From: an uncultured virus (IMG/VR IMGVR_UViG_3300009157_000020)
Lineage: Duplodnaviria; Heunggongvirae; Uroviricota; Caudoviricetes
Direction: 5' to 3' (one strand)
IMG/VR virus record: IMGVR_UViG_3300009157_000020
Length of the DNA stretch: 64,000 nucleotides
How positions within the stretch are numbered: the first letter of the stretch is position 1; each line of letters starts with the position of its first letter. Under the pieces are notes generated by a model. The model had not been told where the DNA came from. It ran no database searches and saw only the letters and a list, made by a program, of their open reading frames with translations. A program made the translations under genes and the position numbers. This document shows, in pieces, positions 22,302 through 44,423 of the stretch.

Positions 22302-22304
22302 GAC

Positions 22305-27424: not shown

Positions 27425-27427
27425 CCT

Positions 27428-28216
27428 CTATTCCTTCATGTTGAGCGTCGAGTTGTCGTTGGAATCGAACTGGTAGACGTACAGAGCTCTCGAAATGACA
27501 GACACGTGGACTGCTTTCGCCGCCATCTTCGAAGCCCATTCTGTGTCTTCGCCATGGTTGATGGTCGGGAACGGCACACTGACGGCGTGCTGCTTCTTCC
27601 AGACCATCAGGTGATTCGGCTTGCGCTGGTATTCGTTGCGTAGCGTGACGTGCTCGAAGCTCGGATGATATCGACAGGGCTTGTCGTGTGTGCCGTAGCC
27701 TCGCACGGTGACGACGAAGCACAGGACATCAGGCTCATTCTGCGTGAGCTCGCTGCAGATCACCTCGACATAGTCTGACTTGACCATGTCGTCATCATCG
27801 ACGAAGGCGACGTACTCACCTTGAGCCAGCTGTACGAGCTTGTTTCTCTTCTCGCCGATCGTCATGCGTCGGTTGTCTCGAAACACGAGAAGCTCGACAT
27901 CATCGCGTGCAGCGACCTGCGGATCGAGACAACTCAACAAGGCGGCCAACTTGCTGGAACGCCCCGGAATCGTGGGGATCAGGATCGATAGCAACGTCGC
28001 AGCTTGCGGGGGTGCAGATCGTCGTCGAGTTGGTGTTACTGTACCAGTTCGCGTAGGTCGAGTTCTCGTCCGTGTCACCATCGACGGTCGAACTTTGACG
28101 GGTGATGTGGCTTCTGGCTGCGGCTGCTGAGCAGGCAGCGGCTGCAACCCCGACAAACGCCGACGGTACTGTTCACGTGCTAGTTGTTCAGCACTCGGTC
28201 GACGAGAGCGCTTCAT
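27428..28216 (-). CDS. glycosyltransferase family 2
   Basis: LSILIPT, IGEKRN, YVAFVDDDD, GEDTEW. Confidence 0.88.
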   Translation of the reverse strand: MKRSRRPSAEQLAREQYRRRLSGLQPLPAQQPQPEATSPVKVRPSMVTRTRTRPTRTGTVTPTRRRSAPPQAATLLSILIPTIPGRSSKLAALLSCLDPQVAARDDVELLVFRDNRRMTIGEKRNKLVQLAQGEYVAFVDDDDMVKSDYVEVICSELTQNEPDVLCFVVTVRGYGTHDKPCRYHPSFEHVTLRNEYQRKPNHLMVWKKQHAVSVPFPTINHGEDTEWASKMAAKAVHVSVISRALYVYQFDSNDNSTLNMKE

Positions 28217-28222
28217 CGTCGA

Positions 28223-29083
28223 TCACCGCGGTCTCGACGTCTTCTTCACGATCGTGTTCTTGGGACCATCGCGAAAGCTGTACCGCCCATCCTTGGACGT
28301 CACACGCCGCACGTTCGGCGTCGCGAACGATTCCGGCTTGTCCGCTGCCGCCAGCTTTGCGTACGTGTTCTGAGCACGAACACGCGGATCTTCGTTGCGG
28401 TCCTCGCTCAGCTTGGCGAACGGAGCCCACTTGTCCCACTTGCATCCGTGCAGCTGCGCCTTCGAACCGGCCTTGTGGTACGGCCTTGTGGGAACCTTGT
28501 GGATTTCCTGATCGAGAGCAGCCCCGACATCGATCGCTGTCTGCCGCTTGCTGTACTCCTGCTGAGCCCAGTAGCGGTAAATGATGATGTTGGCACACGG
28601 CCCTGCCGCGACGAGAAACGGCTTGTCGATGCCGAGCATCTGGCTGACGACCGCGTCGATCTCCCACTTCTGCGAGACGCCGTTCGCAGGCACAACGATG
28701 TCGCAGGCACCGCTGCCGATCAAGACGGCGTTGTTGAAGCGCTTTCGCAGCGCTCGCCACCGCTTGTAGTTCTGGGCCTGGAAGATCGTCGCAAAGGTCG
28801 TCTTCTCCACAGCGGCGAAGCGGCGGTAGTACTCCGCCGCTTGCGGTGTGCAACACGGCGGCGAGATGCCGAGGTAGAACCCATCGACGTCGCACTTGAG
28901 GACCTCGAACAGCTCGTCCTTGAACCACACGTCGTTGCCACGAGACGTCCACTTCGAGGCTGCTCGGTACGGCAAGCCGTTGAGGATCGCGTGCTCGCCA
29001 TCGTGGAACCGAACGAACGCGAACGGTTCGCGCTCATTCACGATGGCGTCGAAGTCCTTGACGAAGTCGTGGGTGAACTTCAT
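28223..29083 (-). CDS. GT-D fold (DUF1792-like) glycosyltransferase
   Basis: FAFVRFHDGE, LVAAGP, IDVGAALD. Confidence 0.7.
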   Translation of the reverse strand: MKFTHDFVKDFDAIVNEREPFAFVRFHDGEHAILNGLPYRAASKWTSRGNDVWFKDELFEVLKCDVDGFYLGISPPCCTPQAAEYYRRFAAVEKTTFATIFQAQNYKRWRALRKRFNNAVLIGSGACDIVVPANGVSQKWEIDAVVSQMLGIDKPFLVAAGPCANIIIYRYWAQQEYSKRQTAIDVGAALDQEIHKVPTRPYHKAGSKAQLHGCKWDKWAPFAKLSEDRNEDPRVRAQNTYAKLAAADKPESFATPNVRRVTSKDGRYSFRDGPKNTIVKKTSRPR

Positions 29084-30420
29084 CCGACTCCCGCCTCGGA
29101 CTCATCCTCATCCCCAGCTTCGAAAGCGCACAACGGCGTCCAGCCGACCTGCCGATACGCGGTGTACAGCTCGCGCCGACGGAAGATGGCGTCCTTGCCA
29201 CCACGTCCCGCTTCGAGTTGCATCCGCCACGTCACCGAGCGATCGGTAACTGGTGGTTCGAGCATCCCCCAGTTCTCGGTGTTGCCCTGCTCGTACGGCA
29301 GCACGATCGTCAGCACGTCTTGAGTTTGCAGCGCTGCCGCGAGGTGGATGTCCCAACCCATGCGACCGTCACCGAAGAACGGGTTGGCGACGACAGCTGG
29401 CAACAAGTCGCGCCGAAGCACCCAGCCCTGTCGTCCGATGTCGACTTCCATCTCCTCGTCGCGGGGCATCTGCGGACCGAGGACCATACGGTCGTCTGGG
29501 TTGTCGCTGCGGAAGATTTCCCCCGCTGCGGCGACGCAGAGGGTGCCACCCTCGGGATCGGCTTCAGCGACCTTGATACGTTCGAGCGCCGATTCGAGCC
29601 AGCGAGGGCCGGGGATCGTGTCGTCGTCGAGGAAGCACACGTACGTCGTCGGAGCGAAGAGTCCTTCGCGGTACCGCGGCCATGCGCCGTGGTTGGTGTT
29701 CGAGCGAATGACCGTGCCCTGCAGCGAAGACATCACGCGCGCGTCCTGAGCGACCTCACCAGCGTTGGCCCACATGATCATGTGAGCCGGTTGCACCGTT
29801 TGATTGAAGAGCGCTTGCAGCTGACGCTTGAGCTGACCCGGCCGCTCGAAGATGGTGAGGATCACCGTAACATCTTCGCGACGCACACCTGACTGTTGCT
29901 GCACAGGCTCGGTCGGTACGTGCGACGGCTCGTACTGCTGCGGCTGCACGAGCTCTTGCGGCACGACACGTGGTTGCATCGTCGTGCGCTGACCACTCCC
30001 GTAACCCTGCTGCGGCACCATCGGATTCGGTCGAGGTTGCGACCGCACGACAGTAGTGCGATCGGGGTTCGAGGTGATCTGCACACCCGATCGAGCAGTC
30101 GTCGATGGCGAGACCTTCTTGACGTGTTGGTTGCCCCCACTCGTCTTGAACGTTCCGCCTCGATTGCGCTGCGCCGGCGTCGGTTGTTGCGCGACCGGTT
30201 TGCCTCCGACCAGCGTTGCTCGAATCTCGAAGTCACCCGTTGCACGAGGTACCGGACCCGTAGCTTGACCTTGCTGCGCTGCAGCGGCGGCCTGCTCTTG
30301 TGCCCCCTTGTTGAGGTTCTTCATCTGCGCTGCTTGTCGAGCTTGCGCAGCTCGTTGACGTTGCATCTTGCGGCCACCAGGCATGCCGAGACCGTAACCT
30401 ACCTGGTAGGTAATCGTCAA
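29080..30420 (-). CDS. GT2-like protein with long Q/P/R-rich N-terminal extension
   Basis: VTVILTIFERP, CFLDDDTIPG; start uncertain (may be 30384). Confidence 0.75.
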   Translation of the reverse strand: MTITYQVGYGLGMPGGRKMQRQRAAQARQAAQMKNLNKGAQEQAAAAAQQGQATGPVPRATGDFEIRATLVGGKPVAQQPTPAQRNRGGTFKTSGGNQHVKKVSPSTTARSGVQITSNPDRTTVVRSQPRPNPMVPQQGYGSGQRTTMQPRVVPQELVQPQQYEPSHVPTEPVQQQSGVRREDVTVILTIFERPGQLKRQLQALFNQTVQPAHMIMWANAGEVAQDARVMSSLQGTVIRSNTNHGAWPRYREGLFAPTTYVCFLDDDTIPGPRWLESALERIKVAEADPEGGTLCVAAAGEIFRSDNPDDRMVLGPQMPRDEEMEVDIGRQGWVLRRDLLPAVVANPFFGDGRMGWDIHLAAALQTQDVLTIVLPYEQGNTENWGMLEPPVTDRSVTWRMQLEAGRGGKDAIFRRRELYTAYRQVGWTPLCAFEAGDEDESEAGVG

Positions 30421-32376: not shown

Positions 32377-32918
32377 CGCTTCTTCCTCTTCTTCTTCGCT
32401 TTCGATCTTGCCTTGGCCTTAGCCTTCACCTTGGCCTTCTTCTTGAGCGGTTGCTTGCGCTTCGCGTTGCGTTGTTTCTTCGCTGCGAGTTTCGTCTTCG
32501 CTCTCGGCTTGCGCTTGACGTCGAGCTTTGCTTTCGGCTTTTGCTTTTTCTTGCGCTTCGGTTTCGCGAGCAACGAACGTCCCGTCGCGAGGTTGCTCAA
32601 GTACTTGAGCGAACAACCGTACTCTTCTTGAATCTCCGCACGAGGCACTCCCTCTCGGAGCTTCGCGAGAATCTCTCGGCGCGGGTAGTACGGTTGCTTC
32701 GGTCGGATCTCCACATCTTGATCGACGAGCCAGCCGCGAACGACCTTGAGGTTGTTCGGCATGTGCGGCAGTCCGCAGATATCTGAGAGCGACCAAGGCT
32801 CTCGTTTCAACGTGTACAAGCGCCGAGCTTCGCGTCTGACCGCCTTCGGGTAGCGTTTTCCGGACGACTGCGTCACAGCACGTTCACCACGGCGAAGGGT
32901 ACGAAAATGGCGAGGCAC
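32373..32918 (-). CDS. HTH DNA-binding protein with Lys-rich tail
   Basis: Two HTH-like segments (WSLSDIC; GVPRAEIQEEYGCSLKYLSNL) and a K/A-rich C-terminus. Confidence 0.65.
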   Translation of the reverse strand: MPRHFRTLRRGERAVTQSSGKRYPKAVRREARRLYTLKREPWSLSDICGLPHMPNNLKVVRGWLVDQDVEIRPKQPYYPRREILAKLREGVPRAEIQEEYGCSLKYLSNLATGRSLLAKPKRKKKQKPKAKLDVKRKPRAKTKLAAKKQRNAKRKQPLKKKAKVKAKAKARSKAKKKRKKR

Positions 32919-33089
32919 AACAGGAGTAGGTGGAGAACGAAGCGATCACGCACGACGCCGGCAGGATCTCGTGGATCGCGCGATCCGTCAAGGCCCTGGC
33001 GAAAGTGGCTAAAACGGGCTTGTAGACCAGTTTTATCGCGATCTTACGAGCACTATTTTGGTAGGTGCATTTTTCAGGTAGAAAGGAAT

Positions 33090-33554
33090 GAACCGCATCT
33101 GGGAAGCGTCTCAGGGAAGGTAGCGGTTCCTGAAAACTGAATAGCTGAACGAAGCGTGCGGGAAGCTGAGTGCCCTCTGGGGTCGCCGCCGCGAAGGAAA
33201 GGGAGCTGAGATCCCCCTGCCCGTCCTCTTCTGGACCACTGGGCATCCTCGAATCGCTCACGGCTACGGCCGGAGATGCATCGAGCAGGTCTCCACGAGC
33301 GCCAGCGAGAGTCTGGCGAGCACGGTCTGAGCGAGGAAGAGCAGACGACCGAGCCTTGAGGGTGGCCCCGCCTCAACGGGGAAGCGACTGTCCGGGAGGA
33401 CAGCAGCCGAGCAGAGAACCGAGAGTTCGCGAAGTGACCGCCTGCAGAAGGCGGAACAGCACGCGAGCACAGAAGACCGAGTAGCTCTGCAACAACTGAA
33501 GAACAACAAGCGAAAACCCCGCGGCCGAGGCAACTCTGCTGCGGTCTTTTGTTT
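33090..33554 (+). ncRNA. candidate large structured non-coding RNA ending in a terminator-like hairpin
   Basis: About nine local hairpins plus long-range complementarities in a ~680-bp intergenic region with no convincing ORF. Confidence 0.5.
33519..33554 (+). terminator. intrinsic terminator-like hairpin
   Basis: CCGCGGC-CGAG-GCAA-CTC-T-GCTGCGG followed by TCTTTTGTTT. Confidence 0.6.
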
Positions 33555-33594
33555 GCCGTTCATTCGTAAAACCTAGAAAACCGAGAACAAGAAA

Positions 33595-33891
33595 ATGACC
33601 AAGAAGCTCCACACCCTTTGCGACATCACCTTCGAGGCCGTCAAGATCGACGAACGCATCACCGCTTACGGGGATCATCTCGTCGACTTCAACGCCGAGC
33701 TGAACACGGCAGCGGTGCTTGCCATCCTCGTCGCCGCACTCACCCTCATGATGTCCGGGCTCTATCTCCTCGTATGGCTGGTGCCGCTGTTCATGATTCC
33801 GAGAATCGTGTTCATGATTCGCCAACGCCGACACATCGACGAGATGCTCGCACGGTTGAACAGAGCACTCATCGAGTCAGACCTCATCTGA
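33595..33891 (+). CDS. 2-TM membrane protein
   Basis: 98 aa with long hydrophobic hairpin. Confidence 0.65.
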   Translation: MTKKLHTLCDITFEAVKIDERITAYGDHLVDFNAELNTAAVLAILVAALTLMMSGLYLLVWLVPLFMIPRIVFMIRQRRHIDEMLARLNRALIESDLI

Positions 33892-33951
33892 TTCGCACAC
33901 GAACACGGCCCCCGAGGGAACTCCGGTGCCGCATCGTGGACGACTCCACGA
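33890..33951 (+). repeat. intergenic hairpin element copy 1 (type A)
   Basis: CACGAACACGGC-variable stem with GGAA loop-GCCGCATCGTGGACGACTCCACGA. Confidence 0.9.
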
Positions 33952-33959
33952 CACAGACC

Positions 33960-34148
33960 ATGGAAAAATCCAAGATCACCCTCACGTACACGATCAACGA
34001 CCGCACCGACGAGCTCACCTCGACGTTCTACGTCGACGCCAAACTCTGTGCCGCAGACGCTTCGGACGCGGCGCATGAAAAGCTCTACGCGAAGTTCCCG
34101 AAGGCTCGCGAGATCCTCGTGCTCAATGAGGAGCTGGACCTCGCCTGA
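33960..34148 (+). CDS. small hypothetical protein (cassette)
   Basis: 62 aa, fills the space between repeats 1 and 2. Confidence 0.7.
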   Translation: MEKSKITLTYTINDRTDELTSTFYVDAKLCAADASDAAHEKLYAKFPKAREILVLNEELDLA

Positions 34149-34210
34149 ATCGCGCACGAGCACAGAGCACGAGGCAACTCGTGCGCTGTGTCGTGGACGA
34201 CTCTCCACGA
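34147..34210 (+). repeat. intergenic hairpin element copy 2 (type B)
   Basis: CACGAGCACAG-stem with GCAA loop-CTGTGTCGTGGACGACTC. Confidence 0.9.
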
Positions 34211-34217
34211 ACACGCC

Positions 34218-34508
34218 ATGAACGTCTACTCGAACTCCACCATCGAAGCCCAAATCGCTGAAGCCATGAAGCCGATGTGCGAAGCCATCGCGTTGGCTGC
34301 TGGCGTCAACCCAGAACAAGTTGAAGTCGGCTACAGCGCTGACGACCCGGAGTGCTGCTGGAACGTGCACATCACCGTCACGTTGAAGCGCACGAGACCA
34401 ACGAGAACCACCCGCATCCACAAGTGGGGACCATCCATCACAGAAGCCGCTCGACACGCTGTCGAGCACTACCGCGACGGCATCGCATTAGGAGACTACA
34501 AGAAATGA
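34218..34508 (+). CDS. small hypothetical protein (cassette)
   Basis: 96 aa directly after repeat 2. Confidence 0.7.
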   Translation: MNVYSNSTIEAQIAEAMKPMCEAIALAAGVNPEQVEVGYSADDPECCWNVHITVTLKRTRPTRTTRIHKWGPSITEAARHAVEHYRDGIALGDYKK

Positions 34509-34732
34509 AACTCTCACCAGCCCAACGAAGAGCGTTCGACGAACGCACGGACAACTGCCGCAAGAACAACACCATTACTGCCGCTCCGGCCACGATCGAC
34601 AGCTTGCGTCGCCTCGGCCTCGCGGGCCGAACGATCGAGCGCTTCGCCTTGAGAGAACAAGCTCCCCACGGGCGCTGGTTCAACCGTCAGTTCGTGACGG
34701 CTGAGCTAACGCCGGCGGGGCAAACCTTATGA
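34505..34732 (+). CDS. small protein, possible winged helix
   Basis: MKLSPAQRRA...TIDSLRRLGLA...ELTPAG. Confidence 0.6.
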   Translation: MKLSPAQRRAFDERTDNCRKNNTITAAPATIDSLRRLGLAGRTIERFALREQAPHGRWFNRQFVTAELTPAGQTL

Positions 34733-34796
34733 CTCGCGCACGAACACGGCGACCGAGCACATGCTTCGTCGCCGCATCGTGGACGACTCTCCACGA
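34731..34796 (+). repeat. intergenic hairpin element copy 3 (type A)
   Basis: CGGCGAC/GTCGCCG inner stem with the conserved flanks. Confidence 0.9.
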
Positions 34797-34814
34797 GAAC
34801 ACGAACACACGACC

Positions 34815-34973
34815 ATGGAAACCATCATCGACGTCCTTGTTACCGCCAACTCCACCCGCTCACGCACGACGCCTGTCGACCCTTGCGAAGAGATCGCCAT
34901 CGACTGGTTCGAGCGCAGTTTCTTCGACGGTGATGACCTCGCCGAACTCTACCTCGAAGAGGTAAATCGCTGA
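34815..34973 (+). CDS. small acidic hypothetical protein (cassette)
   Basis: 52 aa between repeats 3 and 4. Confidence 0.6.
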   Translation: METIIDVLVTANSTRSRTTPVDPCEEIAIDWFERSFFDGDDLAELYLEEVNR

Positions 34974-35032
34974 ATCGAGCACGAGCACAGGTCGCGACTT
35001 CGTCGCGGGCTGTGTCGTGGACGACTCCACGA
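34972..35032 (+). repeat. intergenic hairpin element copy 4 (type B)
   Basis: CGCGAC/GTCGCG inner stem with the conserved flanks. Confidence 0.9.
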
Positions 35033-35042
35033 ACACACGACC

Positions 35043-35405
35043 ATGTCACACACGATCACGATTGAAGTCGAAGATGATGACGGCAACTTCTCTGAGCTCG
35101 AACTCCCGACGTGTTGGGAGATCTGCACGAACTGCAAAGGCGAAGGTCACCACGTACACGACGCTCTCCGCGTCATGACGAGCTCCGAGTGGCACGAGGC
35201 CTGCTACGACGATGACGAGTTCGCCGAAGGCTACATGCGCGGCAACTACGACGTCCCGTGCGAAGACTGCAACGGCAGCGGCAAAGTTCGCGAAGTGGAC
35301 GAAGCGCGACTCACACCCGAGCAGCGCAAGCACTGGGAGTTCCACGTTCACTGCGAAAGCACGTATCAACAAGAACGCGAATCTGAACTCCGGTACGGCT
35401 ACTGA
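35043..35405 (+). CDS. acidic protein with DnaJ-type CxxCxGxG zinc finger
   Basis: CTNCKGEG and CEDCNGSG. Confidence 0.75.
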   Translation: MSHTITIEVEDDDGNFSELELPTCWEICTNCKGEGHHVHDALRVMTSSEWHEACYDDDEFAEGYMRGNYDVPCEDCNGSGKVREVDEARLTPEQRKHWEFHVHCESTYQQERESELRYGY

Positions 35406-35465
35406 ATCGAGCACGAGCACAGAGCACGAGGCAACTCGGGCGCTGTGTCGTGGACGACTCCACGA
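35404..35465 (+). repeat. intergenic hairpin element copy 5 (type B)
   Basis: Nearly identical to copy 2. Confidence 0.9.
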
Positions 35466-35475
35466 ACACACGACC

Positions 35476-35886
35476 ATGAAGATTCTCAAGCAAGCAGAGC
35501 TCATCACCGTCACCACCTACTCGCGGTGCTTCGACTGGTCCGACAAAGAGCCAAACTACGGCTACGCGTTCGACTGCGACAAGTACGGCAACCTCCTGCG
35601 ACCCTCGCTCTCGTTCGAGAAGTGCCTGACGGGCAGCGTCGACGGCACGCCGATCCTCGACAAGGGCGTCCGCAAACACGAGCACACGTATCGCGAACCG
35701 GCGATCGGCCAGTGCAATGCGTGTCGTCGACCGGTCGTGCTCGAAGGCTTCACGAACACGTGCGTGTGCAGCCTCGACTACAACAGCGCCGGACAGCAGC
35801 TCGCTCCGCGAGAACAGTGGGGGGAAGAAACCGGAGAAACCGCCTCGGACATCCTACTCGGCGGCGATGCCTGGGGAGAGCACTGA
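35476..35886 (+). CDS. zinc-ribbon hypothetical protein (cassette)
   Basis: CNAC...CVC..DYNSAGQQLAPREQWGEETGE. Confidence 0.7.
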   Translation: MKILKQAELITVTTYSRCFDWSDKEPNYGYAFDCDKYGNLLRPSLSFEKCLTGSVDGTPILDKGVRKHEHTYREPAIGQCNACRRPVVLEGFTNTCVCSLDYNSAGQQLAPREQWGEETGETASDILLGGDAWGEH

Positions 35887-36146
35887 TGACTCCTCTACCT
35901 CTGCCCCACACTCTCACGAAGCAAGTTGCCGTCGCAGAAGATTGGTACCCCACCGTCAACGGCCTCGTAGAAGTGAAGCTGTACTTCTACAGCAATGGTA
36001 TGCGTCGCGTGTGCGTCTGGGGTGGTGACGACTTCGGCATGGAGCTCGACACGTTCGATGACCTCCTCGCGAAACAGCTCTTCGCCCGCGTCAATCACCT
36101 CGTCACGCAAGCCGACCTTCGCTCCTGGGGCTTCGTCCCAGCTTGA
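35886..36146 (+). CDS. hypothetical protein
   Basis: 86 aa, RVCVWGGDDFGME; TGATG coupling. Confidence 0.7.
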   Translation: MTPLPLPHTLTKQVAVAEDWYPTVNGLVEVKLYFYSNGMRRVCVWGGDDFGMELDTFDDLLAKQLFARVNHLVTQADLRSWGFVPA

Positions 36147-36213
36147 AGCGCACACGAACACGGCGTCGAAGGCTCGCTTCGGCTCCGCATCGTGGACGAC
36201 TCAACGTTCACGA
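36145..36213 (+). repeat. intergenic hairpin element copy 6 (type A)
   Basis: GTCGAAG/CTTCGGC inner stem; core TCGTGGACGACTC. Confidence 0.85.
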
Positions 36214-36238
36214 ACCCAAAACACCGAAAGAAACACAC

Positions 36239-36640
36239 ATGAACAATCCTCTCGAACAGCTCGTTGGAGCGCTCACCCTCGGAGACCTCGCAGCACGCTC
36301 GGGCAAGAGCGTGGAGTCGATCGTCGATTTCGCGATGCGCGGTGGTAGTGCTTCTCCCAAGAACGGCGTGACCAAGACGGTGGCCGCGAAGGCCGTCAAG
36401 GTCGTGTCGTCGGCGTCCACTCAGGACGTCAACACGCGCACGCCTGCCGGACGCGATGCCTACGATGCAGCCGTGCTGACCTTCTTGAAGGCCAAGAAGG
36501 GAACGTGGGTCGGTGCCGGAGCAATCCGGAAGGCCGTCGGCGGCTCCGCGCTGCAGGTCCGCACCACCCTCAACCGCTTGCTCGAAAACAAGGGCGTCTC
36601 GTACAGGGGACAGGCACGCAGCACGCAGTACCAAGCGTAG
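36239..36640 (+). CDS. putative winged-helix nucleoid-type DNA-binding protein
   Basis: AVLTFLK...AGAIRKAVGGSALQVRTTLNRLL...GQARSTQY. Confidence 0.65.
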   Translation: MNNPLEQLVGALTLGDLAARSGKSVESIVDFAMRGGSASPKNGVTKTVAAKAVKVVSSASTQDVNTRTPAGRDAYDAAVLTFLKAKKGTWVGAGAIRKAVGGSALQVRTTLNRLLENKGVSYRGQARSTQYQA

Positions 36641-36701
36641 AAACGCACACGAACACGGCGGTCGAGTTCGCTCGACCGTCGCATCGTGGACGACTCCACG
36701 A
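36640..36701 (+). repeat. intergenic hairpin element copy 7 (type A)
   Basis: CGGCGGTCGAG-TTCG-CTCGACCGTCG with the conserved flanks. Confidence 0.9.
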
Positions 36702-36710
36702 AGAACACCC

Positions 36711-37037
36711 ATGACCAACACGCCCATACACGACCTGTTCGTACACGACCTCGTTGCAGCTGAAAGCGACAAGCGGACGCTCGCCAAGGAAGCAGAGTGC
36801 GAAAGACAGAAACTCGTAGATGCTCTCACGATGTTACGTAACGTCGTCGAGAAAATCTTCCGTAGCGCTGACGATCCAACCGACGCAGACGAAATCGGTG
36901 ATCTCCGCAAACTCGTCGATGCCATCGACGATGCTGAGTTCCGATACACAATTTCCGCACGGGAACGCTCATACAGCATTCGACGTGCTGACCAACTTCG
37001 CCAACTCCTAGACGTCTACAAAACCTCGCACCCCTAA
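36711..37037 (+). CDS. helical hypothetical protein
   Basis: 108 aa after repeat 7. Confidence 0.7.
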   Translation: MTNTPIHDLFVHDLVAAESDKRTLAKEAECERQKLVDALTMLRNVVEKIFRSADDPTDADEIGDLRKLVDAIDDAEFRYTISARERSYSIRRADQLRQLLDVYKTSHP

Positions 37038-37040
37038 GCC

Positions 37041-37283
37041 ATGTACCTCATGACCATCACCTTCACCGACGACCAACTCGACGCCGTACAAGTTCGCGAC
37101 CGCTGGCTGTCACCACAAGAAACTCTCGACGCGCTGACCATGTGCCGCGCCACCCCGCTCGACGTACGCGGCGTTCGGTGGAAGACCGGCGGCACCGTGG
37201 CTGCACGAGCTTGGGAACGCGGCAACAGCCTTCGCATCGGCGCCGGTACGTACAGTGCTCTCACCGTCCTCACCGCGGAGTAA
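37041..37283 (+). CDS. hypothetical protein
   Basis: 80 aa ORF. Confidence 0.6.
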   Translation: MYLMTITFTDDQLDAVQVRDRWLSPQETLDALTMCRATPLDVRGVRWKTGGTVAARAWERGNSLRIGAGTYSALTVLTAE

Positions 37284-37288
37284 CCGAT

Positions 37289-37567
37289 ATGAACATCGAC
37301 GACAGAACCCAAGACGAGATCGAGACCGATGAGCTCATCGCCAACGATCGCAAGAAGATGGACGCCGACGAAGAGATCGAGAAGACCAATCTGGCACGTC
37401 TCGAACAACTCTGTATCGCTCGCAACGTCATCATGCTCTGCGAGTACCAGGTCGAAGCCGTGAAAGAAGCTCTCGATCGAAGCAACATCATCGAGGCTCG
37501 CTTCCAACTCGATCAGCTGCTCCAACGCGTCGAGGGCTTCCGAAAGGAGTTCCCGAACAGGCCCTGA
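37289..37567 (+). CDS. hypothetical protein
   Basis: 92 aa; GGAG RBS. Confidence 0.65.
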   Translation: MNIDDRTQDEIETDELIANDRKKMDADEEIEKTNLARLEQLCIARNVIMLCEYQVEAVKEALDRSNIIEARFQLDQLLQRVEGFRKEFPNRP

Positions 37568-37576
37568 AGTAACGAC

Positions 37577-37617
37577 CTGCCGTTCAGCCTCGGAGCTTGC
37601 TCTGCGGCTGCGGGCAG
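37577..37617 (+). repeat. leader hairpin family 2, copy 1
   Basis: CTGCC-GTT-CAGCCT..GGCTG-CG-GGCAG; matches 41892-41931. Confidence 0.7.
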
Positions 37618-37662
37618 ACCGTCATTTTCTCTCAGCAACCAAAACACACCATACAGACCATC

Positions 37663-38886
37663 ATGTTCAACGAAGCAATCTTCAAGACCCTGTTCTTCTC
37701 TCGCGGCGGCGTCGACCACTACGGCAACGCCAAGTGGGGGATCTCGCCTGCGTTCCACTGGGGTGCCCCCGGTGCCGGCAAGACCGAGATCGCCAACAAG
37801 CTCGCAAAGGTGTTCGGCTGCGACTTCATCCACCCGATCAACCTCGCGGACAACAGCCCCGCAGAGATCGGCGGCGCCATGTTCCCGCACGAGTCGCGGC
37901 AGTACTTCGAGCGGCTACCAGCGAAGTGGGTGTGGGAAGCCAACAACGCCAAACGTGCGCTCATCATCTTCGACGAGTTCGGTGACGCTCCGAAGTTGAT
38001 GCAGAGCATCGCACAGAAAGTGCTCAACGAGCGCATCGTCGGAGACACGAAGCTCAAAGGTCACGTCCGCTTCGCGTGCTTCGGCAACCCACCGGAGATG
38101 TCCACGAACGCCGAGGAAACCGGCATGGCCGTCGCCAATCGTGGCTGCCACTTCGAGCTCCGTGACAGCGTCGAGTTCCTCGAACGCTGGAAGACGTGGC
38201 TCATCGAGGATGCCGGCGAGGTTTTTCAACCCGAGCAGATCGACGCCGACGGTCTCGAAAAGACGATCAGCGAACATCACGGTGCTGACCTCGGCAACGC
38301 TGTCGGCACGGTGATCGCGTTCACGGACTTCCGGCACAAGGACCCGAAGCGGACGGCAGACAACCAGTATGGTTCGGCTGGCGTCATGCTCATCCCCCCG
38401 GAAACGGAGCGCAACCGTGCGTGGTCATCCTACCGCACGATGACGTTCATGACGCGGTGGCTCGCGGCTGCGCATCGACACGGCCTCAGCGAACTCGACG
38501 TCGATCGCGGCATCGCAGCGTTCGTCGGCGAAGCCATGCTCAAGGAGTTCTCCGCATGGAGATTCGAGCGCAAGGACCTGCCGCGCATCGAGGACGTGCT
38601 AGACGGCGTCGTCGCGTTCAAGCACAAGCACGATCGCCCCGACATCACGCTGCACATCCTCTCGGGTGGTTCGGCTGTCGCGTTCGCGACGAAAGACCAG
38701 AAGCTCAAGAAGGAGCGCGCCAAGATGTTGTGGTCGATCATGAAGGAGATCACTCGCACCGAGCCCGATCTCTGTTTCACCGCTGCAACGTCTCTGCAGA
38801 AGATCAACCTGGGAGGCAAGAACGAAGCACAGAGCTTCGTCCGAACCCACCTGTGGGACTGCAAAGACATCGTCGAGCACGCATGA
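37663..38886 (+). CDS. MoxR/dynein-related AAA+ ATPase
   Basis: Walker A GAPGAGKT, Walker B IIFDEF, FGNP, ANR. Confidence 0.88.
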   Translation: MFNEAIFKTLFFSRGGVDHYGNAKWGISPAFHWGAPGAGKTEIANKLAKVFGCDFIHPINLADNSPAEIGGAMFPHESRQYFERLPAKWVWEANNAKRALIIFDEFGDAPKLMQSIAQKVLNERIVGDTKLKGHVRFACFGNPPEMSTNAEETGMAVANRGCHFELRDSVEFLERWKTWLIEDAGEVFQPEQIDADGLEKTISEHHGADLGNAVGTVIAFTDFRHKDPKRTADNQYGSAGVMLIPPETERNRAWSSYRTMTFMTRWLAAAHRHGLSELDVDRGIAAFVGEAMLKEFSAWRFERKDLPRIEDVLDGVVAFKHKHDRPDITLHILSGGSAVAFATKDQKLKKERAKMLWSIMKEITRTEPDLCFTAATSLQKINLGGKNEAQSFVRTHLWDCKDIVEHA

Positions 38887-39083
38887 AGGCCACCATAGCA
38901 GTTGCGTGGCTCGAACGACCAGCGATGCGCCATCGCTGGTGCCGAGCAGCAAGCAAAACCACGCTCGATAGCCAAGACGTGGTCAAAACACTCTGTGGGT
39001 ACTACGTCATGTTGCCCACAGGGTTCTCCTACAACGTACTTCTAGTCGACTGCGAGGAGTGCCTCGCGAAAGCACGTCAGTGA
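38883..39083 (+). CDS. small zinc-finger protein
   Basis: H...TLCG...CEEC. Confidence 0.55.
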   Translation: MKATIAVAWLERPAMRHRWCRAASKTTLDSQDVVKTLCGYYVMLPTGFSYNVLLVDCEECLAKARQ

Positions 39084-40582
39084 AAAAATCCAAACTCACG
39101 GCCGCGCAGGTCATCTCGGTTGCTCGCGCCATCGCGTGCAAGTACTTCCCGTTCTACAGCGCAGCAATCTACGGGATGATCTTCATCGAGAACAATCGAG
39201 AACCAACGCTCGGTGTCACGGACAAAGCGGTCTGTTACTACAACACCGACTTCGTCCTCAAGCAGGGACCGAAGCTGATCGCCGCCGTCCTCGTTCACGA
39301 GGTCGGACATCTTCTTCGACAACACCACAAGCGCTTCCAGCGAATGCGACTCCCACCCGAGGCATGGAAGTTGTGGGGCATCGCGATCGACTGCGAGCTC
39401 AACGACGGCCATCCTCCACAGCTGCCGTTGCCGAACAAGTGCCTGCTGCCCGAGCAGTACGGGATGCCACCGCACAAGACTGCGGAAGTGTACTTCAAAC
39501 TGCTTCGAGCACAGCAGGAACAACCACCGAAACCACCTCCACCACAAGCATCGGATGACACCGAAGACTCGGACGAGCAAGACGAGGAGGGCTCGGACGA
39601 GCAAGACGAGGAGGGCTCGGACGAACAAGGCGAGCGGGACTCCGACAAAGACGGCGACTCCGACGGCGACTCCGACGGCGACTCCGACGGCGACTCCGAC
39701 AGCGACTCCGACAGCAGCGGGAGCTCCAACAGCGACGGTGACGGCCAGGAAGACCACGAAGACCATGGACCTTCCACAGGCCACTGTGGAAGCTGCAGCG
39801 GTCCTCGCAAGCCGTACGAGCCCAAGGACGGGAAGCACGAAGGCGTCGGACGCTCCGAGATCGATATGGAGCGGATCCGTGACCGCGTGGCAGACGACAT
39901 CGTCCAACACGCGAAGCGCCACGGAACGGGGACCAGCAACAGCCTCGTCGAGTGGGCCGCTGCTCGGCTCAAGCCGAACGTCGTGTCGTGGCAGCAACAA
40001 CTCGGCTCGTTGGCGCGGCAGAGCGTTGCCTTCCGAGAAGGCTTCCTCGACTACCGCGACGACTTGCCGAGCCCGCAGCAAGGCGTGCTCGGGTGGGGAC
40101 CGGATGTCCCGTTGTTGCCGAGACTCGTCGCGCCGATCCCCAAGGTGCTGTTCATGGTCGACCGCTCGTTGTCGATGGGGATCGTCGAGCTCACCCAGGT
40201 CGCACAGGAAGTACCCGCCGTCTTGCGGGCGTTGTCGACTCCCCTGCAGTTCGGGTCGTTTGACACCACCGTCAAGAAGATCGAGCGAGTGAGCTCCGTC
40301 GATGCAGCGCTCAAGTTGTTCATCGGTGGCGGAGGCACGGACTTCAACCCGATCTTCGACGCGCTCAAGCGGATGAAAGATCGCCCAAACGTGCTCATCA
40401 TCGGAACAGACGGCTGTGGACCCGCGCCTACACTCGCGCCAAGAGGCGTATCGGTCCTGTGGCTGTTGGTCGGCAAGCAGGCGCAGCGACCTCGTGCACC
40501 CAACGGGAAATTCATCTCGTGGGGCAAGTTCATCTACACCGACCCGGAACTCCGGGCCAAACACATCCTGCAAGCAGCATGA
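39080..40582 (+). CDS. DUF2201-like metallopeptidase plus VWA domain protein
   Basis: HEVGH, DCELN, acidic linker, MIDAS DRSLSM, GGGGTDF, TDG. Confidence 0.88.
   Translation: MKKSKLTAAQVISVARAIACKYFPFYSAAIYGMIFIENNREPTLGVTDKAVCYYNTDFVLKQGPKLIAAVLVHEVGHLLRQHHKRFQRMRLPPEAWKLWGIAIDCELNDGHPPQLPLPNKCLLPEQYGMPPHKTAEVYFKLLRAQQEQPPKPPPPQASDDTEDSDEQDEEGSDEQDEEGSDEQGERDSDKDGDSDGDSDGDSDGDSDSDSDSSGSSNSDGDGQEDHEDHGPSTGHCGSCSGPRKPYEPKDGKHEGVGRSEIDMERIRDRVADDIVQHAKRHGTGTSNSLVEWAAARLKPNVVSWQQQLGSLARQSVAFREGFLDYRDDLPSPQQGVLGWGPDVPLLPRLVAPIPKVLFMVDRSLSMGIVELTQVAQEVPAVLRALSTPLQFGSFDTTVKKIERVSSVDAALKLFIGGGGTDFNPIFDALKRMKDRPNVLIIGTDGCGPAPTLAPRGVSVLWLLVGKQAQRPRAPNGKFISWGKFIYTDPELRAKHILQAA
39568..39712 (+). repeat. 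in-frame tandem repeats in the acidic linker
   Basis: 24-nt unit (SDEQDEEG) about 2.5 times and 12-nt unit GACGGCGACTCC (DGDS) four times. Confidence 0.85.
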
Positions 40583-40764
40583 AACGAAAAAGCAAAATCC
40601 ATCCAAGACCGCTCGGACGATGTCCGAAATGCGGTCAACGAGAGTACCTCGACTCGCGAGGACGCCTCCTCGCCCACACGCGCTACAGAGCGTCCGGCAA
40701 TCCAGACGGGCGCTGTGAAGGTCGAGGACAACTCCCACACATCTGGAACAGAGGCGAAGAGTAG
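40579..40764 (+). CDS. small zinc-binding protein
   Basis: CPKCG...H...C. Confidence 0.55.
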   Translation: MKRKSKIHPRPLGRCPKCGQREYLDSRGRLLAHTRYRASGNPDGRCEGRGQLPHIWNRGEE

Positions 40765-40944
40765 ATGAACCCCGTCAACACACTCAACAAACGAGCCCAG
40801 CTTCGGCACTACATCCTCAAAGCACTCGACAACATGAGCGAAGCCGAAGATCGAAACGACGACACCGGCATGCTCGATGCTGCCCGCAACATCGAGCACC
40901 TTGCTCGCGAGCTCCGCGGGCACGCCGAAGAGCACGGACTTTGA
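40765..40944 (+). CDS. small helical protein
   Basis: 59 aa ORF not in the track (MNPVNTLNKRAQLRHY...). Confidence 0.5.
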   Translation: MNPVNTLNKRAQLRHYILKALDNMSEAEDRNDDTGMLDAARNIEHLARELRGHAEEHGL

Positions 40945-40970
40945 ACCCTCACACCACACAGACCAAGAAC

Positions 40971-41870
40971 ATGAACGCCAAGATCCTCAAACCCGAAAAC
41001 CTGATCGCGACCGACAACCCCAACGCCTTCGTGGGCGCCATCGTGATGTGGCACCTGACGGGAGATGTTCAACTTGCCGAACTACAAGCAGCCTGGAAAG
41101 CACGGACACTCGACGAAGAACTGCTTCCCGACCTGCCCTCTGCCGAGGTCTGCCTCACGCGGGCGATCGACGACTTCACGAGCGGGAAGATCTCGAAGAA
41201 GCGCATCAAGGGCGGCGGCTACCGCATCGACCTCGACAGGAACTACCTCGGGGATACCGCGGACATCGTCACGATCGGCAACGTGACACTCGACGAGTTC
41301 GACAAGCTCGTGTTCACGCGGTTCCAAGACCAGGAGATCTCCGACACGATCATCGAGAACTTCGACAAGCACAGCAAGCAGCTCTCGTCTCGGGACATCA
41401 GCCCGTGGCTCTGCATGAAGCTGATGAATCACTTCAAGGCGACGTCGCTCAAGAGCAACGGCGGCGTCTACTTCGTCCCACGCGAGCGCGTGGACGAGTT
41501 GCAGCGCGTACAGCAAGCCCTGCAGTCCGTGTCGCCCCATCGCATCTACACGGTCAAGGCCATGACCGACAACGAGGCGATCGACATGGTGGTCGACGCC
41601 ATCATGCGCGAAGCCGAGGCCGAGGCTTTGGCCGTCGAAGCAGACCTCGCCATCGAGGACAACGAAGAAACCGGTACGAAAGCTCTCGGTGTTCGAGCGC
41701 TCCGCACCCGAGTCGAGCTCTGCGACGAGATGATCGAGAAGGTGCGCATGTACGAAGACTTGCTCGACCGCAAGCTCGACGACGTGCGCAAACGTCTCGA
41801 CGATCTCAAGGACAAGTCGATGGAGGCCGCGCTGACGGCCGACGCGAAGAAGGAAGAGGAAGGGGAGTGA
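40971..41870 (+). CDS. DUF6744/DUF3150-like protein
   Basis: GAIVMWHL, GGVYFVP, Y.DLL; usual neighbour of AAA-VWA pairs in mobile elements. Confidence 0.7.
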   Translation: MNAKILKPENLIATDNPNAFVGAIVMWHLTGDVQLAELQAAWKARTLDEELLPDLPSAEVCLTRAIDDFTSGKISKKRIKGGGYRIDLDRNYLGDTADIVTIGNVTLDEFDKLVFTRFQDQEISDTIIENFDKHSKQLSSRDISPWLCMKLMNHFKATSLKSNGGVYFVPRERVDELQRVQQALQSVSPHRIYTVKAMTDNEAIDMVVDAIMREAEAEALAVEADLAIEDNEETGTKALGVRALRTRVELCDEMIEKVRMYEDLLDRKLDDVRKRLDDLKDKSMEAALTADAKKEEEGE

Positions 41871-41891
41871 TCTTCTTCCGCAGGTAATATC

Positions 41892-41931
41892 CCGCCGTTC
41901 AGCCTGGAAATCGTTTCCAGGCTGCGGGCGG
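41892..41931 (+). repeat. leader hairpin family 2, copy 2
   Basis: CCGCC-GTT-CAGCCT..GGCTG-CG-GGCGG with GAAATCGTTTC at the apex. Confidence 0.7.
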
Positions 41932-41952
41932 TATGAGACCGCACTCATCACC

Positions 41953-42297
41953 ATGTTCAAGCCCGACACACTGACCAAACTCTCCACGCTTGGCGAACAC
42001 GAAATCGTCTGGCTCATCGAGAAGGCCTACGAAGGTTTCGCGAAGGACTACTACAAGTATCTCGAACAATCGCGTCGTCTCGAAGGGTTACACGTGCCCG
42101 ACAGCATCCCTTCTCCATACCCCCACATTGCGGCGTCCAATCGCAACCGAGAAGACGAGAGGGAGAGCGCGCTCAAGAACACCAAGCAAGCGCTCAAGCT
42201 CTGCAACGTTCTCGACAGCGTGCTCAAGGACCTTCGAGAAGCTCACCACCAGCAGTTTGCACACGACATCGTCGAGTTCTTTCGGAGTCGTCCATGA
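41953..42297 (+). CDS. hypothetical protein
   Basis: 114 aa ORF. Confidence 0.65.
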   Translation: MFKPDTLTKLSTLGEHEIVWLIEKAYEGFAKDYYKYLEQSRRLEGLHVPDSIPSPYPHIAASNRNREDERESALKNTKQALKLCNVLDSVLKDLREAHHQQFAHDIVEFFRSRP

Positions 42298-42875
42298 GAA
42301 AGAAACGCATCAACCCCGACAAGCCGCTGCGGGAGCTGCAGCGGTGCATCAACAAGCTGAGCGACGAGCAGGGGCCCGTCGCTCGGCGAAACGCCCGTGG
42401 TGCTGTACTCGCTGAGCTGCGTCGTGTTCGAGCGTGGCTCGACGCGACGTACCCGAACCTGCAGACCAAGCAGACGCGAAAGAATAGGCAATCGAAACGG
42501 AAAGCACTCGACGGTTGGAAGCCAACGATAGGCGCCATCGAGCAGATATCGTTGCTCGCTGCGGGCATCCCTATGAAGATCTGGCGTCAACCTTCTAAGG
42601 CGGACAAGAAGGACATGATCGAGGTGAAGTACTTCCCAGCTTGGGCGGTCGAGATGCTGGACCATCCTCGCTGCACCAAGAGCATGCTGCAGAAGGCTCG
42701 ACGCAGCGTGGCGTTCAGAAAAGACATGCTCATGGAAGAGCACTTGAGAAAGCGCGGTCTCGAAGAGACCACCGAGAAGGTGATGAGACTCGCGAGGAAG
42801 AAGGCTCCACCGAGGATTTCTCAACTCCAACTCGGACAACAGATCCACAAAGAACTGGAACGAAGTCTGCCATGA
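42294..42875 (+). CDS. basic hypothetical protein
   Basis: 193 aa, ATGA overlaps. Confidence 0.65.
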   Translation: MRKKRINPDKPLRELQRCINKLSDEQGPVARRNARGAVLAELRRVRAWLDATYPNLQTKQTRKNRQSKRKALDGWKPTIGAIEQISLLAAGIPMKIWRQPSKADKKDMIEVKYFPAWAVEMLDHPRCTKSMLQKARRSVAFRKDMLMEEHLRKRGLEETTEKVMRLARKKAPPRISQLQLGQQIHKELERSLP

Positions 42876-43057
42876 GAGAAGAACTCACCCAACGCATGCA
42901 AGCCAAGGGGTACATCACCGTCGCAGAAGCTGCCAAGCAAGCAGGTGTTCCGCCGCCGACGATGTACAGCTGGCTCGATCGCAAACTCATCCGCTCCCGC
43001 AAGCTCGGTGGCGGACGCTACGTCCACGCACAGAGCCTCAAGGAGTACCTCAAGTGA
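42872..43057 (+). CDS. excisionase/MerR-like HTH DNA-binding protein
   Basis: YITVAEAAKQAGVPPPTMYSWLDRKLIRSRKLGG..YV. Confidence 0.8.
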   Translation: MREELTQRMQAKGYITVAEAAKQAGVPPPTMYSWLDRKLIRSRKLGGGRYVHAQSLKEYLK

Positions 43058-43305
43058 CCCAAGAACAACCCAAGTGGTCCTTCGTCGTTCGCGACAAAAA
43101 GGACGGTCACGCCGTTCTTACATCCGCGAAGAACATGCTCTGGTTCGGCAGCGGCGAAAACAAAACCGCAGCCAAGAAGGACGCCATCCAGCATGCATCG
43201 AAGTTTTCTGGCATCAACCCCAAGAGACTCTTCAGTGCAGGGGTTGGAATCGCAGAGAACAGAGCAGCAGAACATCTCGACTACACCGAACGGAACTCGA
43301 CATGA
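43054..43305 (+). CDS. hypothetical protein
   Basis: 83 aa, coupled to neighbours. Confidence 0.6.
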   Translation: MTQEQPKWSFVVRDKKDGHAVLTSAKNMLWFGSGENKTAAKKDAIQHASKFSGINPKRLFSAGVGIAENRAAEHLDYTERNST

Positions 43306-43745
43306 AGCACTACATCATCATGCTCTGCATTCTCTTCGGATGCGGAGACGACGAGGTCGGACCGCCACCCCTCGGGAGCGGTCCGTCCACCACACTGACT
43401 CACGACGACCCCACGTCGGGGACATCAAGCACGACAGAAGAACCAGAGGCCTGCCCCTGGAACGGGCAGTGCTCGTCACTGGAACAGATCGCCGAGTGCC
43501 CCACTTGGGCACTCGCGTGCGGCGACGGATGGCGGTGCATCGACACCGAGAAAGAGCTGGACATCGTCTGCGCGCTGCCGGAGGAGTCGAGTTCGAGCTC
43601 GGGGGGATCGAGCTCGGGTTCAAGTTCGTCGGGCTCGGACTCGTCGAGCTCAAGCTCGTCAGGTTCGGGGTCGTCGAGCTCGGGCTCATCGAGTTCAAGT
43701 TCATCGGGCTCCGGCTCTTCGTCGAGCTCGGAAGGTGGTGAGTAG
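43302..43745 (+). CDS. Ser-rich, Cys-containing putative lipoprotein
   Basis: MKHYIIMLCILFGC; poly-Ser/Gly C-terminal tail. Confidence 0.7.
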   Translation: MKHYIIMLCILFGCGDDEVGPPPLGSGPSTTLTHDDPTSGTSSTTEEPEACPWNGQCSSLEQIAECPTWALACGDGWRCIDTEKELDIVCALPEESSSSSGGSSSGSSSSGSDSSSSSSSGSGSSSSGSSSSSSSGSGSSSSSEGGE

Positions 43746-43747
43746 TC

Positions 43748-43981
43748 ATGCACACGTTCGAAGGCAAGAAAACACGAATCTTCTACAGTAGTGATCTCAG
43801 TGGCGACGTCATCGTCGTCGTTTCCAAGGAGACAACTCTAGAAATGGAAGTCCCTGGTCAAGACTTGCTCGACTTCGTCGCCGAACACGTTCGACAACAA
43901 CGCATCACACAGCTCGAAGACATGACCACCGAAGCACTTCTCGGACTTCCAACTCGTCGCGATACTCAACCAGCAACCTAA
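43748..43981 (+). CDS. hypothetical protein
   Basis: 77 aa ORF. Confidence 0.65.
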   Translation: MHTFEGKKTRIFYSSDLSGDVIVVVSKETTLEMEVPGQDLLDFVAEHVRQQRITQLEDMTTEALLGLPTRRDTQPAT

Positions 43982-43993
43982 GAAGAAACGAAG

Positions 43994-44374: not shown

Positions 44375-44375
44375 A

Positions 44376-44414
44376 GAAAAAGCCCCCAGCCCCCGCGCTG
44401 GGGCTTTTTCTTTT
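44376..44414. terminator. bidirectional intrinsic terminator between convergent units
   Basis: A-tract, GCCCCCAGC..GCTGGGGC hairpin, T-tract. Confidence 0.8.
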
Positions 44415-44423
44415 GGTTGTCAA

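Follow-up and report, generated by a model that had tools for sequence, protein, structure and literature searches.

A repeated hairpin element occurs seven times among the small genes at the start of a rightward operon in an uncultured Caudoviricetes virus (IMG/VR record IMGVR_UViG_3300009157_000020), and here we describe its structure, distribution and possible function. The DNA analysed is a single stretch of 64,000 nucleotides, referred to throughout as the window. Each element folds into one imperfect hairpin with a covarying inner stem, lies in the sense orientation of the open reading frames (ORFs), overlaps the stop codon of the ORF before it and ends shortly before the start codon of the ORF after it. 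With neither a promoter nor a terminator and no match in Rfam, the elements appear to be an RNA hairpin family not described before. We consider it probable that their active form is the sense-strand RNA, and we propose, at somewhat less than even confidence and by analogy with phage T7, that they serve specifically as cleavage or stability punctuation of an early polycistronic mRNA.

Seven hairpins between stop and start codons

The seven elements are all on the + strand, are 56–59 nt long and span positions 33890–36696. They are listed below with their covariance model (CM) scores and, for some copies, the minimum free energy (MFE) or its z-score.

e1, 33890–33946 (+): type A hairpin; starts at the G of the TGA of ORF 33595–33891; loop GGAA; CM 75.9 bits
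e2, 34147–34203 (+): type B; loop GCAA; body 57/59 identical to that of e5; CM 79.1 bits; MFE −34.5 kcal/mol, z −3.77
e3, 34731–34789 (+): type A; next ATG 25 nt on; CM 70.6 bits
e4, 34972–35027 (+): type B; 3-nt loop; both flanks identical to those of e5; CM 67.4 bits; z −2.47
e5, 35404–35460 (+): type B; mosaic of the e2 body and the e4 flanks; CM 76.2 bits
e6, 36145–36202 (+): type A; longest leader to the next ATG (36 nt); CM 69.3 bits
e7, 36640–36696 (+): type A; follows a TAG; loop TTCG; CM 74.8 bits; z −4.23

Two boxes mark every copy. The right box, the 13-mer TCGTGGACGACTC, has seven exact copies in the window (at 33934, 34191, 34777, 35015, 35448, 36190 and 36684, all +), the nearest other match carrying one mismatch at 42285 on the − strand. 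Allowing up to two mismatches gives 17 matches, compared with 5.24 ± 2.03 in shuffled sequences, and 0/100 shuffles reached 17. The left box, CGNNCACGARCACRG, is found exactly at the same seven sites and nowhere else in the window. The elements are thus where the original prediction, made from the letters alone, had placed them. At the one-mismatch site, the + strand at 42285–42297 reads GAGTCGTCCATGA across the start of ORF 42294, within the same operon, and is complementary to the invariant 13-mer at 12/13 positions; this complementarity is probably due to chance, because about five matches with up to two mismatches are expected.

The coupling to the neighbouring genes holds in all seven copies. 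The G and A of a TGA form the first two bases of six elements, and the G of a TAG forms the first base of e7, while the distance from the end of the element to the next ATG is, from e1 to e7, 13, 14, 25, 15, 15, 36 and 14 nt. The units between consecutive elements hold 1, 2, 1, 1, 2 and 1 ORFs, all on one strand. These ORFs match no family above cutoff and have no significant similarity to one another, which agrees with the earlier description of units of one or two unrelated small ORFs. Those directly after an element have A/C-rich leaders without a Shine-Dalgarno (SD) sequence, whereas the two ORFs internal to a unit overlap the preceding stop codon (ATGA, TGATG) and carry GGAG-like sites. 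Alignment confirms two subtypes, in the predicted order A,B,A,B,B,A,A along the array.

The whole element forms a single imperfect hairpin, whose helix extends outward with GAnTCG pairing with CGAcTC. From the outside to the inside it comprises GA/TC, a mismatch, TCG/CGA, a 2x2 internal loop, the stem CACGA/TCGTG, a bulge (type B) or a 3x2 loop (type A), five pairs, and a terminal stem-loop of 7–9 bp whose sequence varies from copy to copy, giving 18–22 predicted pairs per element. With their flanks, e2, e4 and e7 have MFE values of −34.5, −34.8 and −33.0 kcal/mol (z-scores of −3.8, −2.5 and −4.2).

Over 23 paired columns, 88.8% of cells hold standard pairs (82.4 ± 1.7 in shuffles, 0/500 reaching the observed value), and the covariation score is 0.236 (0.105 in shuffles, again 0/500), with six pairs changing on both sides; the structure was derived from the same seven sequences that were scored, a bias in its favour. 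As a control, sliding the partner by 1–3 columns lowered the pairing to 23–40%. The covariation is confined to the inner stem and to pair 18–43 (G-C in type A, A-T in type B), and it bears out the claim that the middle of the element changes in sequence while always folding into a stem. The sense-strand loops of four of the seven copies are GGAA, GCAA and GCAA, which are of the GNRA class, and UUCG; both classes are extra-stable in RNA.

Relatives and signs of gene exchange

The only close relative compared, L016, is an 11.6-kb metagenome contig whose ATPase, DUF2201 protein and next gene are 54%, 53–65% and 44% identical, respectively, to those of the window. It carries three related hairpins, h1–h3, at approximately 1306–1348, 1628–1669 and 6332–6373, which have the foot CACGA/TCGTG and differing inner stems. 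Their left sides abut TAA, TGA and TAA, and each is followed by an SD-like GGAAAGGAA leader. The third, h3, has three sense-strand G.U pairs and folds at −25.6 kcal/mol on the top strand compared with −15.6 kcal/mol on the bottom strand. The L016 hairpins share the foot with the window elements and have otherwise drifted, suggesting that the type of element is conserved across ∼50% protein divergence while its sequence drifts.

Beyond this pair, three contigs of 68.6, 28.2 and 42.7 kb (P0001, P0002 and P0004) carry closer relatives at 50–56% identity. A covariance model built from the seven copies (R1) recovered only those seven in the window and did not detect the diverged L016 hairpins. The search of relatives with this model, which the original prediction had proposed, covered 131 loci around homologues of the DUF2201 gene (L147–L176 and L181–L216 were left out) and returned nothing convincing: 31 relatives' loci gave seven single matches, taken as noise (14.9–20.5 bits, E 0.011–0.54), and the 100 further loci gave nothing at E ≤ 0.1. 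Pattern searches of IMG/VR returned 15 loci for TCGTGGACGACTCNNNNCGA (each a single match inside unrelated coding sequence), three loci without hairpins for the two-box pattern, and 36 loci for the L016-type pattern (single matches with weak folds), all of which were rejected as chance. A single-protein query of IMG/VR with the ATPase found no relative, and a DUF2201 profile search of genome contigs gave one distant match in a metagenome-assembled genome, which was uninformative.

More distant relatives (30–39% identity) carry repeats of their own in the equivalent region, and these resemble ordinary promoters: L100 has six copies of TTGACA-N17-TATACT around a palindrome, and L112 has four copies of a terminator followed by TTGCGC-N17-TAGCTT. 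Together with L028, which has five copies, they hold 4–6 copies of their own intergenic units (L112 10730–13500, L100 5900–11450 and L028 6300–12050), built as terminator plus sigma-70 promoter or as promoter plus operator and similar in this to the PeSL elements of T4-type phages considered below. L028 has the CCTAGA motif of the window's conserved block in common with it. At the end of the contig L017 (12450–13330), ten repeats of 33–35 nt with an 8-bp hairpin (ACAACGGC...GCCGTTGT) are irregularly spaced at 58–160 nt, giving a CRISPR-like look but with uneven spacer lengths.

Within the window, e5 is a mosaic. Its body is identical to that of e2 at 57/59 positions, including the inner stem, and its flanks are identical to those of e4, over the 21 nt that begin with CTGAATCGAG and end with the left arm and over the downstream 19 nt CCACGAACACACGACCATG; the ORFs around e2, e4 and e5 are mutually unrelated. 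Between the window and L016, a single genome pair at ∼54% amino acid identity, gene content differs at two hairpin positions. ORF 37041–37283, which has no hairpin beside it in the window, is 34% identical to L016 1385–1621, and this homologue lies between h1 and h2. In addition, approximately 2.3 kb of extra genes in L016 start right after h3, while in the window the flanking homologues are adjacent, with the hairpin at 41880–41942 between them. This hairpin sits at the same gene junction as h3 and is unrelated in sequence to the seven elements.

These patterns fit a role of the repeats as seams for gene turnover. For the breakpoints at the element that the original prediction had suggested looking for, the comparison offers these two differences in gene content as candidates, whose junctions are not mappable at ∼54% amino acid identity; a single pair of genomes this distant does not tell whether any exchange was site-specific or homologous. 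The DNA run X1 (contigs, ∼3x depth) showed no joints, indels or molecule ends and is uninformative on circles and expression.

Function of the hairpins

We compared the elements with known classes. At the gathering threshold, Rfam found only four tRNAs in the window, and at E ≤ 10 it gave three chance-level matches in 32800–37300, none at an element, so this proposed search assigns no family to any of them. An intrinsic terminator was rejected, as a T-run follows none of the seven hairpins (0/7, and none of them is among the 14 terminator-like sites in 32500–44500), though the phage has canonical terminators at 33507–33555 and 44384–44410. A sigma-70 promoter was rejected on finding no promoter-like site in 32500–44500 (1.8 expected); the conserved block has no TA dinucleotide and therefore no TAnnnT. 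Taken together, these results suggest that neither stopping nor starting transcription is the elements' job. Ribosome bypassing as in T4 gene 60 was also rejected, the codons before the stops being all different.

Several observations count towards a role in RNA on the sense strand, and so favour the second of two options in the original prediction, a repeated RNA element in an early transcript. The elements are in sense orientation in all seven cases and locked to stop and start codons; the hairpin itself is backed by the six pairs that change on both sides; the GNRA and UUCG loops are formed on the sense strand in four of the seven copies; h3 of L016 folds well only on that strand; and the SD sequence is absent after the elements, as opposed to the GGAG-like sites of the coupled internal ORFs.

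The early intergenic gaps of phage T7 fold in a similar way, which we count in favour of RNA processing. RNase III sites of the T7 early region are R0.3, R0.5, R1, R1.1 and R1.3. We folded the gaps 0.4/0.5, 0.7/1 and 1.2/1.3 (62–80 nt), which we take to be R0.5, R1 and R1.3, and each gives a lower stem starting from the stop codon (in 0.4/0.5 the stop codon is within it), a helix interrupted by a loop, and a start codon soon after. In both systems, related hairpins are repeated in gaps of 62–90 nt of a polycistronic early mRNA, form a helix of about two turns that an internal loop interrupts, have their foot at the upstream stop codon and are followed shortly by the next start (7/7 elements here). 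The two differ in that they have no sequence similarity, that no SD sequence follows the elements here, and that the latter are known from sequence and predicted folds. In PMC3867540, the T7 early precursor of ∼7000 nt is described as processed at five RNase III signals, and loops or mismatches as able to limit cleavage to one strand, leaving stabilising 3' hairpins.

On this model, one polycistronic mRNA would start behind the terminator at 33507–33555 and run through about ten small genes. After each stop codon, the RNA would fold into a helix of ∼22 pairs, broken by a 2x2 internal loop and by either a bulge or a small loop. The foot of this helix (GAnUCGnnCACGA / UCGUGGACGACUC) is constant and its tip free to vary. 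Host RNase III, or another endonuclease specific for double strands, might act on the constant foot, or else a sequence-specific factor might do so. Cutting would yield gene-sized pieces, of which the upstream one would keep a protective 3' hairpin, and would free a short A/C-rich leader without an SD sequence for the next gene, as at the T7 early RNase III sites. The 57-nt repeats flanking every unit would also supply homology for the gain, loss and exchange of small genes, much as PeSLs do. What we infer in this model is an active role of the RNA, its cleavage and the kind of enzyme that could carry this out.

A number of features weigh against this model. The outer stem and the CACGA/TCGTG stem are invariant, and covariation therefore says nothing for or against them. 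Over 13 nt the right arm is the same in every copy, although the left arm has four variable positions that are not compensated; such invariance exceeds the known sequence needs of RNase III and points to a sequence-specific factor. In T7 it is the upper stem that is conserved, whereas here it is the lower. The bottom strand, too, has features of its own: as originally described, it forms a long hairpin with a single bulged base (T in type A, C in type B), in which A.C mismatches of the top strand become G.T pairs. The foot column pairs 3–57, 7–53, 15–46 and 16–45 are mostly A.C or C.A on the top strand (18 cells) and G.T on the bottom strand. A.C thus accounts for four of the 5–6 non-Watson-Crick columns in the conserved foot, with a chance expectation of 0.21 per column and a nominal p of 0.009–0.07 depending on how columns are counted, in a count that is post hoc and in which two of the four columns are linked. 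Finally, the bottom strand is the more stable in e1, e2, e3 and e5, by 1.8–7 kcal/mol.

The evidence on the strand runs both ways. Part of the A.C bias is explained by the local composition of the top strand, which has much A and C (A 0.24, C 0.33, G 0.27, T 0.16). The top strand is also more stable than the bottom strand in the other three window copies, by 0.3–1.6 kcal/mol. Inner-stem G.T pairs are formed on the top strand at four different pairs, in e3, e4, e6 and e7, and these are mismatches on the bottom strand. On balance, the sense strand appears more likely to be the active one.

The invariant right arm is also central to a different account, in which the hairpin acts as an RNA switch or operator that controls translation of the next ORF without cleavage, and which we regard as rather unlikely. 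The right-arm UCGUG would pair either with the left CACGA, forming the long hairpin, or with a downstream CACGA, forming a small hairpin with the loop GACGACUC. Which form is adopted would depend on a ribosome stopping in the foot or on a phage RNA-binding protein that recognises the invariant right arm, and translation of the ORF lacking an SD sequence would thereby be coupled or shut off. Such a switch would explain both the invariant right arm and the missing SD sequence. The stop codon is indeed part of the foot, where a terminating ribosome could reach it and would open the long hairpin. In every one of the seven copies, a CACGA lies 0–7 nt after the invariant block. With DNA parameters, the MFE structure includes the small hairpin in six of the seven, but in only one with RNA parameters, under which the long hairpin is preferred in 6/7. 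L016 keeps the alternative pairing with other letters (CGTGC-loop-GCACG, 3/3, and in the MFE structures of h2 and h3), but the CGUG/CACG core is common to both phages, and this is thus not independent evidence. Moreover, the start codon and leader are unpaired in both conformations, leaving no obvious on/off mechanism, and no RNA-binding protein was identified among the window ORFs.

A precedent that we count in favour of a switch comes from the SAS and ESAS of Cluster K mycobacteriophages. Pope et al. 2011 (PMC3203893) describe these as repeats associated with start sites and preceded by an inverted repeat, with a function that is not known, the SAS being SD-like (GGGATAGGAGCCC) and 3–8 bp from the start, and the ESAS arms being 17 bp long with a spacer of 4–13 bp. 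As far as that description goes, they share with our elements that they are phage-specific repeats in one orientation before some non-structural genes, with an inverted repeat of variable spacer upstream of a start-proximal block. They differ from the elements described here, which have arms of ∼19 nt, a covarying inner stem-loop of 19–21 nt and no SD sequence.

A similar layout is known from T4-type phages. Arbiol et al. 2010 (PMC2839356) describe PeSLs as an upstream stop, a stem-loop, a conserved block and a start codon, placed before ORFans in a variable region; there and in Comeau et al. 2014 (PMC4122927), they mediate gene shuffling, and their defining features are a strong sigma-70 promoter and a stem-loop that terminates transcription. 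On that description, the likeness to our array extends to repeated stop-to-start cassettes with a stem-loop before ORFans in an early region and, in the two cases seen against L016, to differences in gene content at the cassettes, and the difference is that our elements have neither a promoter-like site nor a T-run (32500–44500). The elements could nevertheless be composite terminator-promoter cassettes, that is, true PeSLs, with a promoter of unrecognised type, for instance one served by an unusual sigma factor or by a phage RNA polymerase whose gene lies beyond the window. We consider this improbable. The invariant 13-mer does look promoter-like in its near-fixed distance of 13–15 nt from the ATG in 5/7 copies, and distant relatives (L112, L100 and L028) carry repeated terminator-promoter units in the equivalent region; those repeats, however, have plain −35 and −10 boxes, and our elements do not. 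A start driven by the block would leave a leader of at most 15 nt, no RNA polymerase gene is present in the 64-kb window, and the missing sigma-70-like sites, TA dinucleotide and T-runs all count against such a cassette.

The other option in the original prediction was a new cassette system resembling integrons, with the window's tyrosine recombinase (1949–2902; given there as 1976–2902) as one candidate enzyme. The likeness to integron attC sites is in the architecture: an imperfect palindrome of ∼57 nt lies 3' of a promoterless ORF and has paired boxes, an unpaired spacer, a bulge and a variable terminal stem, and its bottom strand is predicted to fold as a continuous helix, with 18 G.T cells gained there and four gained on the top strand. 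Sites of the attC class have RYYYAAC (R'') and GTTRRRY (R') cores at their two ends. No RYYYAAC...GTTRRRY pair occurs on either strand of 33401–37300, where the only + strand GTTRRRY, at 33855, lies outside any element; the absence of the cores had been correctly noted. Nor is there an IntI here, while attI and Pc were not sought separately. The recombinase is a generic Xer/phage-integrase type that scores 21.5 bits on the integron-integrase model TIGR02249 (cutoff 265), and it lies 31 kb from the array, next to ParB and tRNA genes. When 140 ORFs (63 likely genes and 77 others) were scanned against Pfam, no other recombinase (HUH, Y1 or serine), no RNA polymerase, no RNase III and no identifiable RNA-binding protein was found. 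An identity as integron attC sites was therefore rejected. Of the predicted cassette capture, what stands is a weaker form, in which the repeats may act as seams for gain and loss by ordinary recombination.

It would take a cassette system unrelated to integrons, working in the same way, for the bottom strand to be a single-stranded DNA (ssDNA) recombination site, and this we judge very unlikely. A recombinase other than IntI would move units of ORF plus hairpin by recognising the constant foot and the single extrahelical base, and the A.C columns and the gene content differences from L016 (the ORF 37041 homologue and the ∼2.3 kb after h3) would be its traces. The excess of A.C, which becomes G.T in four conserved columns, keeps such a role open at low probability, and the paired boxes, unpaired spacer, conserved bulge, variable tip and promoterless ORFs also count for it. 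In addition to the missing attC cores, the distant recombinase and the Pfam results, it has against it that h3 of L016 is 10 kcal/mol worse on the bottom strand, that the four top-strand G.T pairs of the variable stems become mismatches, that the A/C-rich top strand partly explains the bias, and that two genomes were compared. Unlike attC, the element also includes the leader that precedes the next ORF.

Least probable of all is an ssDNA hairpin promoter on the template strand, of the kind used by the N4 virion RNA polymerase: supercoiling of the DNA would extrude the hairpin, and a polymerase injected with the phage DNA would read it. In 4/7 copies the fold of the template (bottom) strand is slightly the better one, the elements precede early-looking genes, and the operon ATPase weakly matches N4-like phages (26–30% identity over a third of its length), but N4 promoters have stems of 5–7 bp and 3-nt loops and number three per genome, compared with ∼22-pair helices in seven copies here, the window has no giant polymerase or RNA polymerase family match (its largest ORF is 908 aa), and polymerase A and helicase put the phage far from any cultured group.

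The operon, its phage and significance

The operon runs rightward from 33595 to ∼43745, with the array at its start, and continues into a MoxR-type ATPase and a DUF2201/VWA protein. Its main features, and the recombinase considered above, are as follows.

1949–2902 (+): tyrosine recombinase, generic Xer/phage-integrase type, not IntI
33507–33555 (+): canonical intrinsic terminator, a hairpin and then TCTTTTGTTTG, immediately before the operon; also conserved in L016; MFE −25.3 kcal/mol, z −3.58
33566–33582 (+): 17-nt block GTAAAACCTAGAAAACC, 17/17 identical in L016 and unique in both sequences
33595–33891 (+): first ORF of the operon, 98 aa with a hydrophobic segment, without a family
33960–37283 (+): ten small ORFs between or just after the elements, of 52–136 aa, all below family cutoffs and without paralogues among them, with ATG at 33960, 34218, 34505, 34815, 35043, 35476, 35886, 36239, 36711 and 37041
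41880–41942 (+): unrelated long hairpin without a T-run, between genes 40941–41870 and 41953–42297; MFE −34.6 kcal/mol, z −3.87

The second canonical terminator (44384–44410) likewise consists of a hairpin and a T-run. The conserved block GTAAAACCTAGAAAACC may hold the −10 region of the operon promoter; as a repeated operon-promoter motif it was rejected, being present in a single copy in the window. Upstream of the operon, both phages have ∼330–450 nt without a convincing ORF (window 33264–33594; L016 100–600), and this stretch closes with the conserved terminator and the identical 17-nt block. It could represent a leader, or a small RNA, that an insulating terminator separates from the operon promoter behind it. 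In L016, the DUF2201 homologue carries at 4266–4531 an acidic, D/S/G-rich insertion of short tandem repeats (periods of 9 and 30–39 nt) that is absent from the window's gene.

The window as a whole is that of a large uncultured phage-like element, with ParB, a tyrosine recombinase, four tRNA genes, a family A DNA polymerase, helicases and a primase. The polymerase, primase and helicase are its largest ORFs. The polymerase and helicase are at most 27–38% identical to those of any cultured phage, and megablast of 33000–43000 against cultured phages gave no match. Elsewhere in the window, a UvrD-type helicase (56004–58346, −) has a Hint (intein) domain inserted at approximately residues 239–299. 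A sugar-modification block at 19580–30420 encodes a GDP-mannose 4,6-dehydratase, several methyltransferases (including a C-methyltransferase) and family 2 glycosyltransferases; it is mostly leftward (21141–30420), with 19580–20509 and 20404–21138 at its left edge on the + strand. A PTH2-type peptidyl-tRNA hydrolase ORF (9929–10306, −) overlaps tRNA-Ile(AAU) (10251–10325, −), and three further tRNA genes (Val, Pro and Gln) lie near the integrase.

Small genes for host takeover and counter-defence, which change fast, crowd the early regions of phages. To our knowledge, how the expression of such early genes is balanced and how they are swapped is understood in few model phages, through the RNase III sites of T7 and the PeSLs of T4-type phages. 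The array described here has the same design, gene-sized units split by a repeated hairpin that is fused to the next leader, in an uncultured lineage far from cultured phages. Were the bottom-strand reading true, the elements would represent a new ssDNA recombination system. If instead they are sites of RNA processing, they would point to a wide occurrence of hairpin punctuation in early mRNAs, and would provide a compact, sequence-defined processing module.

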